From positions 10,076 to 74,075 of the forward strand of contig JAZUKN010000057.1 in NCBI GenBank assembly GCA_045643285.1: 64,000 nt of DNA, given 5' to 3'. Every line of letters begins with the position of its first letter. Position 1 is the first letter of the stretch. Shown piece by piece: positions 15,481 through 60,614 of this stretch. A program made the translations under genes and the position numbers. This stretch comes from Eubacteriales bacterium (GTDB lineage Bacteria > Bacillota > Clostridia > Oscillospirales > CAG-272). The notes under the pieces are model-generated. The model saw only the letters and a program-made list of their open reading frames with translations. It did no database searches and was not told where the DNA came from.

Positions 15481-16160
15481 TTGCACGAAGTGCAAACATC
15501 ATTTTTCTTTTACTTGCACAAACCTCATTAAGACAAAAGGAAGAAAACGTTTCACGTTTTCAATTTCATCTTTCTGTCCTGTTCGTTTACGAACGGGCGG
15601 ACGGCGCACAAGCCGAGTTCACTCCGTGAACTCGTCGAGATGCTCCGCATCTCGGTGAGTCACTTTCGCGGACTCCTTGCCAATCCACACGACTTAGGGG
15701 GAAGGTTGCTTCGCTCTATTCACGCCTACCGACTTCGTAAACGAAGTCGTCGAGATGCTCCGCATCTCGGTTGAACCCCTTTGTTTCAGAGTAAATGCAA
15801 CTCAATTATTTATCTTACCATTTAAAAACGACTACGTTTTACTTCATAATGAGCGTCAGCGCGCTATTATTATCGATCTAAATCCTCTACACCGTCGCAC
15901 TCGCTTTGTGACAAAGGGGAGTCCAGAGGGGGAATGAGCTTGCTCCTTCCCCCTTTGGCGGGATGATTCACAAGAAGGCCGCGTCGGTCTTCTTGTGCGC
16001 CCCGCGCGTAGCGGAAAACCGATACTAAACGTAGAGTTTGTGCAGATTCCGCGGGAGGGGAAACCCCTCCCCTACGGTGTATGTGGTGAAAAAAGTGTGA
16101 TTACGCGCGTAGCCGCGAAGAAAACTGAATTTTGAAAACGTCCCCGACGTTTTCTACCTT
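15481..16160. repeat. Double copy of the mosaic hairpin-module repeat (left arm 15513..15812 forward, core 15813..15895, right arm 15896..16160 inverted)
   Basis: Perfect hairpins lie at 15481..15495, 15543..15561, 15578..15597, 15615..15633, 15636..15654, 15730..15749, 15751..15769, 15969..15997, 16053..16071 and 16134..16154. The region is homologous by eye to 44920..45560 and to single copies elsewhere. Confidence 0.9.
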
Positions 16161-16178
16161 ACACCACCGTAGTGGAAA

Positions 16179-20501: not shown

Positions 20502-20560
20502 ATGTTTTTTTGTGATTTTTTAATTATTTTTGAAGATTTCTATGAGGATTTTCGAAAAAT

Positions 20561-20841
20561 CTCACGGCTTCGCACGAAATGTCATTTTCCACCGTAGGGC
20601 GGGGGTTTACTCCCGCCGCCGAAAGACTTGAGTTTACTTTATATAGGCAAAAGGTAGAAAACGTCTGCGACGTTTTCAGATTTATTTTTTGTCCTGTTCG
20701 CTTGCGAACGGGCGGACATCGGACAATTCATCCAAACCACACGTTTGGTGTCGTCTTTGTCCTACGCGGACGGCGCACAAGAGCATCGAATCATGGAGTT
20801 CACGAAGAGAACTCGGCTTGTCCGCCGTCCGCGTAAGACAA
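20561..20841 (+). repeat. Single forward copy of the mosaic hairpin-module repeat (truncated at the GRE promoter)
   Basis: Hairpins lie at 20598..20617, 20657..20677, 20693..20712, 20732..20748 and 20797..20813. A long outer inverted repeat gtcctacgcggacggcg / cgccgtccgcgtaagac spans 20759..20839. Confidence 0.85.
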
Positions 20842-20844
20842 ACC

Positions 20845-23911: not shown

Positions 23912-23982
23912 ATACGCGAAGCGTATATCATCCGTGAAACGGATATCATCGCGCAGCGATATCATCCGCGAATGCGGATATC
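23912..23982. repeat. Tandem array of four mini-hairpins separated by exactly ATC
   Basis: Hairpins are atacgc-gaa-gcgtat (23912..23926), atccgt-gaa-acggat (23930..23944), atcgc-gca-gcgat (23948..23960) and atccgc-gaat-gcggat (23964..23979). The array starts 8 nt after the GRE stop codon. Confidence 0.85.
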
Positions 23983-23995
23983 ATTATTCTTTAAC

Positions 23996-24535
23996 TTGCA
24001 CAAGCCACGTGGCTTCGCACGAAATACAAATCCACCTCCGGTAGGGGACGGTGTCCTCGACGTCCCGCGGATTTAGGCAAACCTCACTGCTACGCACGAA
24101 AAATCATTCTATACCGTAGGGGAGGGGTTTCCCCTCCCGCGGATTTGCACAAACCTCACAAAGGAAAAGGAAGAAAACGTCGGGAACGTTTTCAAATAAT
24201 CTATTTGTCCTGTTCGTTTACGAACGAGCGGACAGGCGCACGATTTTTCCAAACCGCACGTTTGGCTTCGGTGTGTCCTGTTCGCTTGCGAACGGGCGGA
24301 CGGCGGACAAGCCGAGTTCACTCCGTGAACTCAGTGAACGTCGCCTCCTTGTCAATCTACCCGCTTAGGGGGAAGGGACTTCGTCCTATTCACGCCTCCC
24401 GACTTCGTAAACGAAGTCGTCGAGATGCTTCGCATCTCGGTCTGACTCCCCTTTGTTGCAAAGCGAATGCAAATCTTTTGTTCGCTTTATCAAATTATTC
24501 ATTATTCATTCTTCATTATTCATTATTCATTTCAG
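23996..24535 (+). repeat. Forward copy of the mosaic hairpin-module repeat with an internally duplicated module, ending in AT-rich heptamer repeats
   Basis: Hairpins lie at 24002..24015, 24045..24066, 24120..24138, 24173..24193, 24209..24228, 24249..24265, 24277..24296, 24314..24332, 24400..24419 and 24421..24439. Five attattc-type heptamers occupy 24494..24528. It matches 15513..15812 closely by eye. Confidence 0.9.
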
Positions 24536-24543
24536 GAGACATC

Positions 24544-25998: not shown

Positions 25999-26037
25999 AA
26001 GACTTTTTTGCTCGTTTTCTGTGAATGATTTTATATC

Positions 26038-26151
26038 CCGTACACGTCCTTGACCTTAGCTTCAAGGTATCTGAGGTAGAAGTCGGGATCGAACGGCTCG
26101 CCGAGGACCTTGTCAAGTATCTCGCACGGCTTGTAAAGCGAGCCGAACTGC
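26038..26151 (-). pseudogene. Orphan duplicate of the last ~37 codons of the M32 carboxypeptidase gene
   Basis: 114 bp align to 27396..27509 with 3 mismatches, all in the first ~25 bp. In the carboxypeptidase frame it reads ...LRYLEAKVKDVYGI-stop, and the substitutions are synonymous. No upstream coding sequence is attached. Confidence 0.85.
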
Positions 26152-26166
26152 GTGGGGATCTGTTTT

Positions 26167-27366
26167 TTATTTCCCTATGCACTTGCGTTCAAGTGCACTG
26201 AGGAATGCGCTTGACGTGAAAATCTGATAGTTACCGACTGTTTCGCCGTTGTCTGCCGGAAGCAGTCTGGTGTTTTCTGTCCCGACGAACAGCTTTGACG
26301 GAGTTGGGACGATAATCAGGATTTTTGTCGTGTCACTTTCAAATGAAAAATCAAATCTTGACAGAATGGGGTACAATTCTGTTTTAAAAAGCCGAAACGT
26401 GTGCAGGCATATTCCGTTTCCGTTTTCGGAAAAAGCAAGCGGCGAACCTTTCCACACTCCTGCAATAATCTTACAGCGGAATTCTTTCTCCCCGACCGAT
26501 ACGCTGAAATTGTAGCCTCTCTGTTCGCGGAACACAGAAGAATAAGGCTTTTTGACTTCGCTCAAAGCTATTGATTCTTTTGAGCAGACGCGGCGCAGAC
26601 TGCGCATAAATCTTCTCTGTTTCAAAAGAGCGCGTGCAAAGACAATCACGATAACCGCAGCTATCACAGACAGCACGGCAATAATTATTTTCACTGCATA
26701 TTCCCGATTTCCTCGCGCTAAGAGCAGCAGAGTACTTGCCAATGGTATGAGACACGCAAATCCCGAAAAGAGAATGAGACAACCGATAAGTACCACTATG
26801 AGATTTTTGATGGTTCTGACAATAGGATTCTTCTTGTTCGCCTTTCCATCATAATGGTCACGTCTCCAACCTTTATGTACATAATAGAATACGCAAAATT
26901 CAATCATGAACAAAAGCACGATGTAAATTACCCAAGAGATAATTTTTGTTTGAATCGGTGACAGAGATGATTTGTCAAGGAATGATCCCGCTATGCAGCC
27001 TAATCCGAAAGAGAACGGCATCACTGCCGATAAAACTGCGAAGCAGGCAAATTCGATTAAAAAGTCAAAAGAGAGGATAATGTTTTTCGATTCGGCGGAG
27101 AAAGTCGATTTCTCTTTGATTTTGTCGAGGTAGTCGCATTTTTTCTCATTGTTATTAACCTCCACTGCGCTCATAACAAGAAAAGTAATCAACAAAAGAA
27201 TGATAAAACCCCACACGGCAATGAAATGATCGCTGGTTTCATACGCCGCTACGGACAGAATTATTTCGAACATAATTTTTACTGCCGTCCAAAATCCGAC
27301 GACAAAAAAGTATGCGATGATCGAAATAAGAAATCGAAAACCTATTCTTTTCGCTTTATCTTCCAT
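26167..27366 (-). CDS. Hypothetical 6-TM membrane protein with ~140-aa C-terminal soluble domain
   Basis: 399 aa with six hydrophobic segments and then a basic linker RRFMRSLRR. I do not recognise the C-terminal domain. The gene is visibly AT-richer than its neighbours and sits between the 114-bp direct repeats. Confidence 0.7.
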   Translation of the reverse strand: MEDKAKRIGFRFLISIIAYFFVVGFWTAVKIMFEIILSVAAYETSDHFIAVWGFIILLLITFLVMSAVEVNNNEKKCDYLDKIKEKSTFSAESKNIILSFDFLIEFACFAVLSAVMPFSFGLGCIAGSFLDKSSLSPIQTKIISWVIYIVLLFMIEFCVFYYVHKGWRRDHYDGKANKKNPIVRTIKNLIVVLIGCLILFSGFACLIPLASTLLLLARGNREYAVKIIIAVLSVIAAVIVIVFARALLKQRRFMRSLRRVCSKESIALSEVKKPYSSVFREQRGYNFSVSVGEKEFRCKIIAGVWKGSPLAFSENGNGICLHTFRLFKTELYPILSRFDFSFESDTTKILIIVPTPSKLFVGTENTRLLPADNGETVGNYQIFTSSAFLSALERKCIGK

Positions 27367-27388
27367 AAAAAATCCTTTAGGGTTCTAT

Positions 27389-28888
27389 TTACACGCCGTA
27401 TACGTCCTTGACTTTCGCTTCAAGGTATCTGAGGTAGAAGTCGGGATCGAACGGCTCGCCGAGGACCTTGTCAAGTATCTCGCACGGCTTGTAAAGCGAG
27501 CCGAACTGCCATATTTCTGCTTTGTTCCACGCATTCACCGGTGCGAAATCGCCTTTTCTTATACAGCCGTCTACATCGACGGTCTTTTTCATTTTATCGA
27601 GGAACTGCGCGCCGTATGCCGAGCCGAGCGCATAGGACGGGAAGTATCCGATCGAGCCGCCCGACCAGTGGCTGTCCTGGAGAACGCCGTGCTTGTCGTC
27701 CGGCACGTCCACACCGAGATATTCTTTGTAGAGCGCGTTCCATGCCGCCGGCAGATCGTGGACGCTGAGCTGTCCTGCCATGACGCGCTTTTCAAGCTCG
27801 TATCTTACCATGACGTGCAGACAGTATGTTACTTCGTCGGCTTCGGTGCGGATCAGCGACGGCTCTGCCTTGTTTACCGCACGGTAGAAGTCCTCTGCGG
27901 TGTGCGCCTTTAGTTCAGGGAACAGCTCGCACAGCTTCGGATAGATGAATTCGCAGTACGCGCGGCTCCGTCCGATAATGTTTTCGTAGAAGCGGCTCTG
28001 GCTTTCGTGGATGCCCATTGAAACTCCGCCGTCGATCGCCGTGAATGCGTACTCGTCACGGCAACCCGTGTCATAAAGCGCGTGACCGCCTTCGTGGATG
28101 ACCGAGTACATCGACGGAACAAAATAGTCCTCGTGATAGTGCGTCGTGATGCGTTCGTCGAGGTGCGAGCCGAGGTCAGTCGTGAACGGATGCTCCGTCT
28201 CTGCGATGCCGACGTGCATGAGATCAAGTCCCATTGTACGCATCAGATAATCGGACAGCTCTCTCTGCTTGTCTATCGGGAAATTACCCCAGAGGAATGA
28301 GTCGTCGACCTGCTTTGTCGCGGCAACTTTTTTGAGCAAGGGAACAAGGCACGCGCGGACTTTTCCGAAAAAGTCGTCGCACACGGCTTTGTTAAGTCCG
28401 TCTTCATATTCACCGAGCCAGTAGTCGTAGGGATCCTTGTCAGGCGCGAAATATCCGGCAAAGCGCTTGTTCGTCTCGAAGATCTTTTCGAGGATAGGCT
28501 CGAAAAGCGCGAAATCGCTCGCTTCTTTTGCTCTGTGCCATACGTCGTCCGCCTCGACGAGCAGTTCCTCGTATGCGATATACTCGTTCATCGGAACTTT
28601 CTGCATCTGACGGATTGATTTGAGAAGCAGAAATACCTCGCGGCGCTCTTCTTCGGTAAGCTCATCCTTGTTTACGTCGAGAAATTCGAGCAGAGCAACG
28701 GTTTCTTCACCCGTCGAGAGCTTGTATTCCTCTTCGGAAAGAACTGCGAGCGTGCGTGCGCGGTTTGCGGCTGTGCCTTTCGGCGCGGTCGTCTGTCCGT
28801 CGTAGAAGATCATCGTGGATGCGTGGGCGTATGCTTTGAGTTTTGTTTGCAGGGTTTTGAGGTTTTCTCTTGCTTCGGTGAGTGTCAT
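27389..28888 (-). CDS. M32 carboxypeptidase (Taq-type thermostable carboxypeptidase 1 family)
   Basis: 499 aa with the zinc motif HEGGHALYD and the M32-typical HESQSRFYEN. Confidence 0.93.
   Translation of the reverse strand: MTLTEARENLKTLQTKLKAYAHASTMIFYDGQTTAPKGTAANRARTLAVLSEEEYKLSTGEETVALLEFLDVNKDELTEEERREVFLLLKSIRQMQKVPMNEYIAYEELLVEADDVWHRAKEASDFALFEPILEKIFETNKRFAGYFAPDKDPYDYWLGEYEDGLNKAVCDDFFGKVRACLVPLLKKVAATKQVDDSFLWGNFPIDKQRELSDYLMRTMGLDLMHVGIAETEHPFTTDLGSHLDERITTHYHEDYFVPSMYSVIHEGGHALYDTGCRDEYAFTAIDGGVSMGIHESQSRFYENIIGRSRAYCEFIYPKLCELFPELKAHTAEDFYRAVNKAEPSLIRTEADEVTYCLHVMVRYELEKRVMAGQLSVHDLPAAWNALYKEYLGVDVPDDKHGVLQDSHWSGGSIGYFPSYALGSAYGAQFLDKMKKTVDVDGCIRKGDFAPVNAWNKAEIWQFGSLYKPCEILDKVLGEPFDPDFYLRYLEAKVKDVYGV
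27396..27509. repeat. Direct-repeat partner of 26038..26151 (functional 3' end of the carboxypeptidase gene)
   Basis: Aligned by eye, about 90 consecutive identical bases plus a 5' part with 3 mismatches. Copy-to-copy offset is 1358 bp. Confidence 0.85.
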
Positions 28889-28966
28889 ATTGTTTCCGCC
28901 TTTCTATGATTTGTGTTAAAATTATGCCTCCCCTGTGCAAAGGGAGCCTGCTTGTAGGTATTGCAC

Positions 28967-40547: not shown

Positions 40548-40628
40548 TGTGACTTCGTCACAGTGAAGTTTGCCTTCGGCAAGTGATGTTCGGCTTCGCC
40601 GAATGATGTTTTCATACTTCGTATGAAA
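40548..40628. repeat. Tandem array of four mini-hairpins directly after the glnN stop
   Basis: Hairpins are tgtgac-ttc-gtcaca (40548..40562), ttgcc-ttc-ggcaa (40570..40582), ttcggc-ttc-gccgaa (40589..40603) and tttcatac-ttc-gtatgaaa (40610..40628), separated by gtgaagt / gtgatg / tgatgt. A module-B-like hairpin follows at 40638..40666. Confidence 0.85.
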
Positions 40629-40680
40629 GTTAAGGAAGAAAAAACGTAACACGGTTACGTTTTTTCAAATAAACAAAACA

Positions 40681-40712: not shown

Positions 40713-40740
40713 ACATTAACTGCGCGGAGCACATCATAAC

Positions 40741-40801
40741 TTGCCGAAGGCAATCATCACTTCACGAAGTGAATCATCACTGCTCACTGTGACGTAGTCA
40801 C
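40741..40801. repeat. Mirror-image mini-hairpin array after the M23 peptidase gene stop
   Basis: Hairpins are ttgcc-gaa-ggcaa (40741..40753), ttcac-gaa-gtgaa (40761..40773) and gtgac-gta-gtcac (40789..40801), with tcatcac spacers. The first is the exact reverse complement of 40570..40582. Confidence 0.85.
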
Positions 40802-44895: not shown

Positions 44896-44919
44896 GTATT
44901 CCCTTTTTTCTTTGGCAAA

Positions 44920-45560
44920 GAAAGAGAGAAAACGTCAGAGACGTTTTTATTATCCTAACTTGTTTACAAGTGGGCAGACGGGTATTTATCCAAACCGCAC
45001 GTTTGGATTCGTTTTTCCGCTACGCGCGGGGGCGCACAAGAGCGTACCGCGACGCTCTTGTGAATCACCGCGCTTAGGGGGAAGGTCGCTGCGCTCTATT
45101 CCCCCTAAGAACCCCTTTGTTGCAAAGTAATTGCAAATCTATTATTATCTAATCATTTATTAACGATTATGTTATACTTTATAATGAGCGGCAGCGCGCT
45201 ATTATTAACGATCTAAATCCTCGAAAACGTCGCACTCGCTTTGTGACAAGGGAGATTCCAACCGAGATGCGGAGCATCTCGACGACTTCGTTTACGAAGT
45301 CGGTAGGCGTGAATTGACGAAGTCCTTCCCCCTTTGGTTCGGTGATTGACAAGAGCGTCGAATAACGCTCTTGTCCGCCGTCCGCCGCGTATACATATGC
45401 CGGACAAAAAGATGAATTTGAAAACGTCACCGACGTTTTCTACCTTTTGCCGATGTAAAGAGTGTGCAGATCGTTCGGCGGCAGGAGTAACGCGTATACA
45501 TACGCACTGCCCTACGGCATACAGGTGAAGTTCACGCGAAGCCGCAAAATTTGTGCAAAG
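44920..45560. repeat. Second double copy of the mosaic hairpin-module repeat (left arm 44920..45140 forward, core 45141..45230, right arm 45231..45560 inverted)
   Basis: Hairpins lie at 44928..44948, 44959..44970, 44990..45006, 45035..45062, 45073..45109, 45263..45281, 45283..45302, 45348..45375, 45420..45440 and 45492..45505. The core segment 45181..45222 matches 15846..15887 at 40 of 42 positions. Confidence 0.9.
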
Positions 45561-45608: not shown

Positions 45609-45637
45609 TTGACCTTCCGACATTTTCGGAGTATAAT
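45609..45637 (+). promoter_or_regulatory. Sigma-A promoter for the DUF512-der-plsY unit
   Basis: TTGACC (45609..45614), 17-nt spacer, TATAAT (45632..45637). Confidence 0.65.
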
Positions 45638-51682: not shown

Positions 51683-51726
51683 GAAGTAAAATGAATATGA
51701 AAGAAGTAGACAAAGTGATCAAAAAA

Positions 51727-51880
51727 ATTTGCATTCACTTTGTAATAAAGGGGAGTCCAGAGGGGGAATGAGCTTGCTCCTTCCCCCTTTGGCGGGTAGA
51801 TTGACAAGAAGGTGACGGTCACCTTCTTGTCCGCCCCGCGCGTAGCGGAAACCATGAAATCGAAAACACGAAGTGTTTTC
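51727..51880 (-). repeat. Single inverted copy of the mosaic hairpin-module repeat (short subtype)
   Basis: Contains gacaagaaggtgac-g-gtcaccttcttgtc (51803..51831) and gaaaacac-gaa-gtgttttc (51862..51880). It nearly matches 15905..16015 by eye. Confidence 0.88.
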
Positions 51881-54573: not shown

Positions 54574-54588
54574 CAGAGAAACGAAAAG

Positions 54589-54620
54589 TCCCTCACGAAA
54601 AAGTGAGGGATCTTGTTTTT
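54589..54620 (+). terminator. Intrinsic terminator after the BlaI-family gene
   Basis: tccctcac-gaaaaa-gtgaggga followed by tcttgttttt. Confidence 0.75.
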
Positions 54621-54660
54621 CTTTCGGGAAAGAAATAAAGAAAGCTATAACATATATAGA

Positions 54661-54866
54661 AGAGGAAGAAAACGTCTGAGACGTTTTCTTCCTCTTGCCT
54701 ATGTGAAGTATGTGCAAATCGCCAGACGGGAGACCAATGGTCTCCCCTACGGTGGAAAACGATATTCCGTGCGCAGCCGTGACAATTCTTCGCCGGAAGA
54801 AATAACGTGCGGTTCCGCGCGTAGCCGCAGAAAACAGTTTCTTTCAAAAACGTTTCAAACGTTTTT
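54661..54866 (-). repeat. Inverted partial copy of the mosaic hairpin-module repeat
   Basis: A 16-bp perfect hairpin agaggaagaaaacgtc-tga-gacgttttcttcctct lies at 54661..54695. gggagacc-aat-ggtctccc (54728..54746) is followed by ctacgg, and aaaaacgt-ttcaa-acgttttt lies at 54846..54866. The region is collinear with 16030..16154. Confidence 0.82.
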
Positions 54867-54876
54867 CCCCTTTCGC

Positions 54877-54905
54877 TTGACGCACGCGAAAACCTGCTGT
54901 ATAAT
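54877..54905 (+). promoter_or_regulatory. Sigma-A promoter for azlC-azlD
   Basis: TTGACG (54877..54882), 17-nt spacer, TATAAT (54900..54905). Confidence 0.65.
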
Positions 54906-57673: not shown

Positions 57674-57924
57674 TGTGACAATCCTTCCGTCACGGCAAGC
57701 CGCGCCACCTCCCTTTGCACAAGGGAGGCTTAAATTGAGTCTCACGCTAAGGCTCCCTTGTGTAAAGGGAGCTGTCAACAAAGTTGACTGAGGGATTGTT
57801 CACCATTACATCAAAGTATTATTATCCCACATCACGACTTTTATCAAGTGAGGCTTTGATTAAGTCTCACGTTAAGGCTCCCTTGTGTAAAGGGAGCTGT
57901 CAACAAAGTTGACTGAGGGATTGT
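57674..57924. repeat. Q-type hairpin modules: one forward unit plus a 66-bp direct repeat of the inverted unit
   Basis: The forward unit is 57674..57728 (cctccctt-tgcac-aagggagg at 57708..57728). The 66-bp repeats are 57734..57799 and 57859..57924, with 2 mismatches and a 125-bp period. Each contains gctccctt-gtgta-aagggagc and gtcaac-aaa-gttgac. Confidence 0.88.
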
Positions 57925-58248
57925 GAAACCTGCTCGTCAATATATTCACACACTTTTTTGAAATTTGTGTTCACGTAGCTGTTGGCAAATCGGATGACTG
58001 TAAGACCGTATTGTTCAAGTAACGCTGTTCGTTCCTCATCGTATTGCTTGCCATCGGCAGTTTCGTGCTGTCGACCGTCAAGCTCAATTACAAGTTTGGC
58101 TTTGGCACAGTAAAAATCAACGATGTATCTCCCGAGTACTTTTCCCGAGAAAAGCGAACAGGATAGGTACTTAGAAAATCATACCATAAATGTTTTTTCT
58201 GAGCATCTTTGCAGTCGGAACAATGCTTTTGTTATGCTTGCTCTCCAT
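57900..58248 (-). pseudogene. DUF559 (Vsr-like endonuclease domain) gene remnant with frame disruptions
   Basis: The minus strand reads MESKHNKSIVPTAKMLRKN.. then (frame change) ..HLWYDFLSTYPVRFSREK then (frame change) VLGRYIVDFYCAKAKLVIELDGRQHETADGKQYDEERTALLEQYGLTVIRFAN... No intact ORF of 60 aa or more is listed in the track. The last 8 codons lie inside repeat copy 57859..57924. Confidence 0.75.
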
Positions 58249-60261: not shown

Positions 60262-60530
60262 GGCTACGCACGAGGTATCACACACCTGTATACCGTAGGG
60301 GAGGGGTTTCCCCTCCCGCGGAACGACCTTCACATACTTCACATCGGCATAAGGTAGAAAACGTCGGGGACGTTTTCAAATTATTTGTTTTGTCCTACGC
60401 GGACGGCGGACAAGAAGGTGACCGTCACCTTCTTGTCAATCTACCCGCCAAAGGGGGAAGGTCGCTACGCCCACTTCCCACACTGGACTCCCCTTTGATG
60501 CAAAGTAAATGCGAGACTTTCGTTCACTCT
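60262..60530 (+). repeat. Single forward copy of the mosaic hairpin-module repeat (short subtype), followed by AT-rich heptamers
   Basis: Contains gggagggg-ttt-cccctccc (60299..60317), gaaaacgtc-ggg-gacgttttc (60357..60377) and gacaagaaggtgac-c-gtcaccttcttgtc (60409..60437). attattc-type repeats lie at 60543..60560. Confidence 0.88.
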
Positions 60531-60614
60531 GTCCTATTTTTCATTATTCATTATTAATTCTATTTTAACCCAAACTAACAATTTCAACCTAACATAATTC
60601 AAAGGAGCATCACA

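Follow-up and report, generated by a model that had tools for sequence, protein, structure and literature searches.

In Streptococcus pneumoniae, a Firmicute, the intergenic BOX repeats are non-coding, follow the order boxA-boxB(n)-boxC, in which the count of internal modules varies, and form strong predicted hairpins. Canonical REPs, by comparison, have as their defining feature the tetranucleotide GT[AG]G, located 5' at the hairpin foot (PMC6006769), and their stems mostly measure 6–9 bp (PMC3733652). Most GTAG REP families can be further differentiated into subfamilies with alternative complementary stem residues, and a 2013 survey of tagged REPs places GTAG repeats in Proteobacteria, Cyanobacteria, Chloroflexi, and PVC, with no mention of Firmicutes or Clostridia (PMC3733652). 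TnpAREP acts on single-stranded REPs and depends on the 5' motif as well as on the structure (PMC8266576); the HUH Y1 transposase at IS200/IS605 ends reads a single-stranded DNA hairpin together with a neighbouring conserved tetranucleotide (PMC6006769). At REPs and at IS200/IS605 ends, HUH Y1 enzymes recognise short sequence tags in combination with a single strand that is folded (PMC8266576, PMC6006769).

The window, namely the whole 64,000-nt stretch of DNA analysed here, is a Clostridia-type chromosome segment of ~52% GC with genes for CdaA, RecJ, a RelA-like protein, PFL, Der, and PlsY, and the best named matches of its proteins are to uncultured Clostridia or 'Ruminococcaceae' MAGs, with Qingrenia at 73% identity. 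It holds seven clusters of a hairpin repeat, the H1/C/H3 family, of which one contains the focal hairpin at 54728-54746. Module-related sequence amounts to 2.96 kb, or 4.6% of the window, and is intergenic throughout; seven H1 and nine C copies are found in the 64 kb, none of them within genes. The many small stem-loops of this family vary in sequence and remain paired, in the manner of the REP/BIME repeats of Proteobacteria, and the family is probably a further example of an already described kind of element, as opposed to a novel structured RNA; the more specific description of this hairpin as a module of a REP/BIME-like intergenic DNA repeat family, carried by an uncultured gut or rumen Clostridia lineage, is given an even chance.

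Architecture and Extent of the Family

The forward strand of an element is taken to be the one that carries the GTAG heads of H1 and C. Read in this direction, the modules follow the order (A-H1-B)-C-(D-E)-D'-H3-G-(M-K)-N, which is collinear in the window and in two related species, and the elements, which range in length from about 160 to ~500 nt, occur singly or as convergent pairs (Table 1). Individual modules may be absent, duplicated, nested, or relocated. The architecture is hierarchical, in that the clamps GTCC..GGAC, SACAAG..CTTGTS, and GGGGGAA..TTCCCCC enclose either a short loop or more hairpins. On the plus strand, the focal H1 hairpin reads GGGAGACC-AAT-GGTCTCCC, followed by CTACGG, and the minus-strand reading given in the table extends at its 5' side to CCGTAG; when folded as single-stranded DNA, the two strands of this hairpin reach -7.8 and -8.2 kcal/mol, with z about -2.9.

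Table 1. Elements of the H1/C/H3 family, selected modules, and the tandem copies of the second repeat family in the window.
Feature	Position	Strand	Composition or remark
Convergent pair	15514..16161	.	Forward arm 15514-15812, reverse arm 15890-16161, AT-rich tail in the centre
C copies of 15514..16161	15543-15561 and 16134-16154		
H3 of 15514..16161	15969-15997	-	A.C mismatch on the element strand, equal to G.T on the + strand
H1 of 15514..16161	16053-16075	-	
Forward element	20553..20842	+	A, H1, C (20657-20677), D (20690-20717), E, D', H3
H1 of 20553..20842	20594-20617	+	GGCGGGGG/CTCCCGCC, one G.T
Forward element, longest unit (~500 nt)	23990..24486	+	Two tandem H1, 24041-24066 (GGGACG type) and 24116-24138 (GGGAGGGG type), followed by B, C (24173-24193), two D copies, E, H3 (containing an inserted hairpin), G, M, K, N; ends immediately before a GNAT gene start
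Convergent pair	44922..45527	.	Forward arm 44922-45150 with C, D, E, D', H3 (45035-45062), G, N; AT-rich tail between; reverse arm 45255-45527 with K, M, G, H3 (45348-45375), C (45420-45440), H1 (45480-45515, nested palindrome), A
Minimal core unit C-D'-H3-G-N, about 160 nt	51701..51880	-	C at 51862-51880 is the GAAAACAC/GTGTTTTC variant; H3 at 51803-51831
Cluster with the focal hairpin	54653..54866	-	Minus-strand order A, A, H1, B, C; C forms an extended hairpin of 17 bp (54660-54696); two more hairpins at 54786-54801 and 54846-54866
Focal H1 hairpin	54728..54750	-	GTAG head and GGGAGACC-ATT-GGTCTCCC, then GTCT
Second family ('Q type'), two tandem copies	57706..57924 (57706-57799, 57845-57924)	.	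Unrelated to the H1/C/H3 family
Forward element	60262..60542	+	A, H1 (60295-60317), C (60357-60377), D' (60392-60404), H3 (60409-60437), G-like hairpin, N

The family was sampled in three species, over roughly 100 kb of sequence, and no members are found at the sampled loci of the relatives L119-L130 and L132-L139 (76-87% protein identity). Among genome contigs, the pattern GAAAACGTNNNNNACGTTTTC, which is palindromic and unspecific with 16 specified bases, gave 107 chance matches and none with other modules; the more specific pattern AGGNAGAAAACGTNNNNNACGTTTTC gave seven matches among metagenome contigs, with the palindrome alone in every one, and two long module patterns gave no match among viral contigs. 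A protein search with the spurious ORF across the cluster at 24145-24543, used as a probe for copies annotated as genes, also returned no match; another spurious long ORF runs through the cluster at 20579-20836. Related metagenome contigs start or stop in or beside repeats (L116 at 1-80, L118 at 1-80, and the end of L135), and contig breaks within repeats, as in L116 and L118, are expected of high-copy sequence. Between module N, the 3' end of the element, and the start of the next gene lie runs of the heptamer TTCATTA (24487-24530 and 60540-60560 of the window); in L119, runs of the related heptamers GTGAAGA/GTGAATA come after the stop codon of GHL10.

Other repeats are present in the window as well. 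The Q-type family, further copies of which lie at 1204-1262 and 28919-28946, carries no GTAG head; the stem change proposed for it, GTCACGG/CCGTGAC to GTCAAC/GTTGAC, is confirmed, and another is seen between CTTCCCTT/AAGGGAAG and GCTCCCTT/AAGGGAGC. Its tandem copies adjoin a frameshifted remnant of a DUF559-like endonuclease gene on the minus strand at ~57930-58130 (...IVDFYCAKAKLVIELDGRQHE...VIRFAN...). A third repeat class lies directly 3' of stop codons at 23920-23986 (-), 40561-40634 (+), and about 40740-40800 (-), and in relatives at L117 15944-16090 and L119 4133-4170; it consists of arrays of three to four short hairpins with 4-nt loops of the TTCG/GAAG type, variable stems, and fixed (A)GTGAAG or ATCAT spacers, and it fits the description of changing stems with preserved loops and spacers better than the H1/C/H3 family does. 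Two arrays of this third class match Gut-1 (RF01706) below the gathering score of 50 (41.4 bits, E 1.5e-5; 35.1 bits), and the sub-threshold match at 23920-23986 directly adjoins one cluster of the H1/C/H3 family. Lastly, a 122-nt direct repeat, 95% identical between 26030-26151 and 27388-27509, brackets the ORF 26167-27366, which encodes a weakly DUF2298-like membrane protein; the 3' end of the gene 27389-28888 constitutes the second copy, and insertion of the ORF may therefore have duplicated this part of the gene.

Pairing and Relatedness of the Stem Variants

The original prediction held that equivalent hairpins carry different but still complementary stems. The palindrome arms on which it was built are present in all 18 of the intervals cited, and hairpins in like flank context do differ in their stems and stay complementary, with pairing far beyond chance. 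The window contains 11 instances of GTAG immediately 5' of a perfect stem (6 bp or more, loop of up to 10 nt), where a first-order Markov null predicts 0.83 (200 simulations, maximum 5), and family members account for 10 of these 11 stems; similarly, the C palindrome pattern GAAAACGT-N5-ACGTTTTC is observed seven times in the window, where none is expected. Covariation was scored on flank-anchored, ungapped constructs consisting of the first and last n bases of each hairpin, with the loop swapped for TTT in order to equalise length. Paired cells make up 94.3% in H1 (72% shuffled), 92.3% in H3 (74% shuffled), and 92.9% in the C clamp (89% shuffled), and both sides are changed in 6 of 8, 10 of 13, and 2 of 9 pairs, respectively, the C clamp occurring as GT:AC, AC:GT, and GC:GC. 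For each of the three modules, none of 500 shuffles attains the observed covariation score or percent paired, a count which, with 8-14 distinct and mutually related copies per module, describes a strong pattern and not a probability. When the 3' partner is shifted by 1-3 columns, pairing drops to 39-68%. RNAalifold places 28 consensus pairs in eight D'-H3-G cores, 17 of which show compensatory changes, and the D' hairpin, absent from the list of the original prediction, encloses an invariant TACGC loop with stems of GTCC/GGAC, CCGC/GCGG, or TCGC/GCGA. The sequence thus varies and its pairing persists, and the best reading of this pattern is that pairing is constrained in single-stranded nucleic acid.

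The accompanying statement that loops and flanks are kept is only partly accurate. The unpaired linkers, GGCG and AATC among them, are conserved across the three species, as are the GTAG head and the TACGC loop; the H1 loops (TTT, ATT/ATC, TTTA, 10 nt, or 22 nt), the D loops (TTTA or CTTG), and the 3' flank of H1, however, vary. This flank changes together with the stem, which differentiates H1 into three types: GGGAGGGG and GGGACG with the 3' flank GCGGA, GGGAGACC and GGGAAACC with GTCT, and GGCGGGGG and GGCAG with GCCGAA.

Whether such variants are homologous bears directly on how their pairing is to be read, for the covariation would be an artefact of non-homologous inserts if small, unrelated palindromes had entered independently at a hotspot beside the conserved flank. 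This explanation is considered highly improbable. Nested palindromes do exist, as in the H1 at 45480-45515, which encloses GCGTATACATACGC, and at 45387-45400, where the near-identical GCGTATACATATGC lies within another module, and some H3 clamps hold the extra hairpins J and K; but the variants share most of their positions and are 1-3 paired changes apart, by which separate, unrelated insertions, the circumstance named at the outset as capable of overturning the claim, are largely excluded. All 11 H1 copies begin their stem at the identical base after GTAG, with GG at the start and CC at the end, and within a type the stems differ by single paired transitions from G-C to A-T, at position 5 in GGGAGACC/GGGAAACC and at position 4 in GGCGG/GGCAG; the shared start base and these transitions argue against unrelated insertions. 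Related stem pairs include GGGAGACC/GGTCTCCC and GGGAAACC/GGTTTCCC, GGCGG and GGCAG, GACAAG..CTTGTC and CACAAG..CTTGTG, and GTCC/GGAC and CCGC/GCGG around the TACGC loop, and the differences among H3 clamp variants are confined to positions 1, 3, or 6. These alignments support reading the stem variants as related versions of one module in place of unrelated inserts. Besides stepwise substitution, the variation arises in part from nested palindromes and from whole module variants swapped between copies or strains. The 14-nt palindrome GCGTATACATA(T/C)GC, at 45387-45400 and 45492-45505, is nested in D' and H1 of one cluster, as though inserted or copied twice.

Turnover, Strand, and Gene Context

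The family turns over rapidly, and orthologous spacers differ in whether they carry a cluster. The GHL10-DUF512 spacer measures 845 bp in the window and 915 bp in the relative L117, with a cluster in both, against 190 and 210 bp, respectively, in L119 and L120, where the cluster is absent; the BlaI-AzlC spacer, the site of the focal cluster, measures 362 bp in the window against 31 bp at the orthologous site of L117, and the GSIII-M23 site has an 845-bp cluster in L117 and none in the window. Comparison with the empty sites of L119 and L120 identifies neither a target-site duplication nor a precise empty-site boundary. In the same-species contig L115 (99% protein identity), 650 nt of the 44922-45527 cluster are ~99% identical to the window, and on the left, 150 nt have given way to alternative versions of these modules, namely a GAAAACA/TGTTTTC form of C, another D, and changed loops in E and H3. 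Aligned as window 44905-45060 and L115 1745-1890, this is a wholesale swap of ~150 nt within one repeat arm, between flanking DNA that is ~99% identical, and it resembles the outcome of a recent gene-conversion or recombination event among copies of the repeat. On the downstream side of PFL, L131 and the window have the first H1 (GGGACG) in common and differ in the second, which is of the GGGAGGGG type in the window and of the GGGAGACC type in L131.

Exchange of whole module variants between copies and strains is also what would be seen if the palindromes were functionless, kept perfect by intra-strand template switching and spread by gene conversion, in which case 'compensatory' changes would arise in one step without selection. 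Template switching is known to create and maintain perfect hairpins (PMC8794818), and the stems of H1, H3, and C are nearly always perfectly Watson-Crick paired, with very few intermediates; the small palindromes nested in other modules and the symmetry of folding between strands point the same way. This process, however, leaves unexplained the cross-species conservation of the GTAG head, the TACGC loop, and the GGCG/AATC linkers beside changing stems, the collinear module order in three species, and the rise of the family to its present share of the sequence, and paired transitions at one position, of which GGGAGACC to GGGAAACC is an example, give the impression of stepwise change. It is accordingly rated improbable; were the palindromes merely self-maintaining, the family would represent clear but ordinary repeat dynamics.

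The original prediction further described a structured RNA or single-stranded DNA element. The constrained pairing upholds the structural part of this description, and its RNA part is not favoured. An RNA role would have the elements act as hairpin arrays in untranslated regions of neighbouring mRNAs (3'-end protection, attenuation, or processing sites) or as a multi-copy structured ncRNA, under selection on RNA folding. Covarying stems with conserved unpaired linkers and loops would suit such a role, and the comparison of folding with shuffled controls, a check proposed along with the prediction, shows the focal cluster to be far stabler than its shuffles, with z = -5.3 on the minus strand and -7.2 on the plus strand. 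A T.G wobble is conserved in the extended D stem on the forward strand of the element in four distinct variants, and the H1 at 20594 and a single C copy of L117 contain G.T pairs; moreover, REPs elsewhere in bacteria are reported to affect mRNA stability (PMC6006769), and another hairpin-array motif of the window resembles the Rfam candidate RNA Gut-1.

Against these points, the two strands fold equally well, the forward minus reverse difference in RNA MFE averaging -0.08 +/- 1.6 kcal/mol over 15 elements, with the forward strand lower in 8 of the 15. Single elements run in the same direction as the flanking genes in two cases and in the opposite direction in two others, and clusters are situated after the predicted terminator of the upstream gene and before the predicted promoter of the downstream gene, as with the predicted terminator (54588-54611) and promoter-like site (54877-54905) that bracket the focal cluster, and also at 45609-45637. 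The modules are optional, duplicated, or re-ordered, C preceding A-H1 at 16134 and following it at 60357, and no conserved promoter is found inside the element. Mismatches comprise 16 G.T and 11 A.C, a small sample that includes chance hairpins and in which the difference is not significant. Rfam gives no match at the gathering score over the whole window; even at E<=1 the H1/C/H3 family is unmatched, and the one hit over the clusters, Phe_leader at 23.3 bits (gathering 55; E=0.27), is judged to be chance. An RNA role is hence held to be unlikely. REP layout, strand symmetry, mixed orientation, placement between terminator and promoter, the lack of an Rfam match, and turnover together speak for a DNA repeat family in preference to an RNA gene. 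The accompanying opposition of a structured element to a decaying repeat is a false choice, since the sequences constitute a repeat family and GTAG REPs themselves have alternative complementary stems (PMC3733652).

Other assignments were considered and rejected. A T run is lacking from both strands of H1 and H3, and C is only weakly terminator-like, which does not suit intrinsic terminators; the integron attC, CRISPR, and riboswitch readings were set aside in view of a housekeeping context with neither cassettes nor arrays and with no Rfam matches.

Comparison with Described Repeat Systems

GTAG-tagged REPs are palindromes of 20-40 nt that typically number more than 100 per genome, and a cognate RAYT/TnpAREP gene is flanked by the same REPs (REPtron). 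The family is like GTAG REPs and BIMEs in its short, GC-rich, extragenic palindromes with GTAG directly 5' of the stem, repeated across the window, in forming mosaics with other motifs, in its subfamilies with complementary residue changes, and in its patchy distribution among close relatives. The GTAG tetranucleotide is invariant in the 11 H1 copies from three species, and H1 itself measures 19-22 nt (one copy of 32 nt with a nested insert), with GC-rich stems of 5-8 bp. The C module, of 19-21 nt with a stem of 7-9 bp, begins with GTAG in 7 of 17 copies and with GAAG in 8 of 17, and the last G of this head pairs with the C after the stem, so the head is not fully unpaired. Unlike GTAG REPs, the family resides in a Clostridia host, and H1 does not form the inverted doublets, set at a short and regular distance, of REPINs and BIMEs; it stands singly or in direct tandem (24041 and 24116; L131 5838 and 5894), and convergent pairing is seen solely for whole composite elements. 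As for MITEs, which have defined terminal inverted repeats and flanking target-site duplications, the convergent pairs at 15514-16161 and 44922-45527 are present, but their arms differ in module content. No Y1_Tnp/RAYT or other transposase was found with Pfam in 20 window ORFs, which included most of those flanking clusters, and no Y1_Tnp/RAYT appears in the gene tables of the fetched loci L115-L139. Unlike a BIME, in which REPs alternate with short linkers, the unit here is a collinear string of ~10 different hairpins, longer and more ordered. These differences in transposase, doublets, and unit count against the REP/BIME reading, as do the partly paired C head, the lack of an identified target-site duplication or precise empty-site boundary, and the fact that conserved linkers with covarying stems would also suit a functional RNA. 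In its proposed working, the element is likened to REP/BIME repeats and not established as one of them; because inverted doublets of H1 are absent, it is described as REP/BIME-like and not as a member.

On the REP/BIME-like reading, the stems would form extruded hairpins wherever DNA is single-stranded, replication forks being one example, and a structure-specific enzyme or host factor would read the stem geometry and short unpaired motifs, presumably GTAG at the head of H1 and C, TACGC in the D' loop, and the linkers GGCG and AATC. Only those copies that can still fold would be propagated or retained, allowing their stems to drift via paired changes, and recombination or gene conversion among copies would shuffle the module variants. 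By analogy with GTAG-tagged REPs, the candidate enzyme would be a HUH Y1 transposase of the RAYT type. If the analogy is true, REP/RAYT-type biology would reach Clostridia, and the family, with its many stems on fixed heads, loops, and linkers, would offer a natural mutational series for the needs of a structure-reading single-stranded DNA enzyme. In practical terms, the repeats appear to fragment the metagenome assemblies of this lineage and yield spurious ORFs, and their recognition aids annotation.

The subterminal hairpins of IS200/IS605 and their non-autonomous derivatives are comparable in that a single-stranded DNA hairpin stands beside a fixed tetranucleotide, and reading of this combination by a HUH Y1 enzyme would explain covarying stems with fixed short motifs. 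The present elements differ from IS200/IS605 in having no tnpA/tnpB nearby, no defined left and right ends, and far more hairpins per unit. They also resemble BOX as ordered, modular intergenic repeats of Firmicutes; BOX has three module types and is not known to contain GTAG-headed palindromes or to be related in sequence to the H1/C/H3 family. Gut-1 (RF01706), a candidate RNA from gut metagenomes, shares tandem hairpins with variable stems and fixed spacers, and it matches a different repeat class of the window.

A more far-reaching interpretation is that the family is the first GTAG-REP-like system in Firmicutes, a collinear scaffold of 160-450 nt and ~10 hairpins with conserved single-stranded motifs and covarying or exchangeable stems that would serve as the substrate of a candidate HUH/RAYT-like single-stranded DNA enzyme, or else a multi-copy functional RNA of gut or rumen Clostridia; it is put forward tentatively, as a possibility that is more doubtful than not. 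Alternative complementary stem residues are already known from the GTAG REP subfamilies (PMC3733652), and what appears to be new in comparison is the host group, Firmicutes being unmentioned in that survey, together with the elaborate, ordered multi-hairpin unit.
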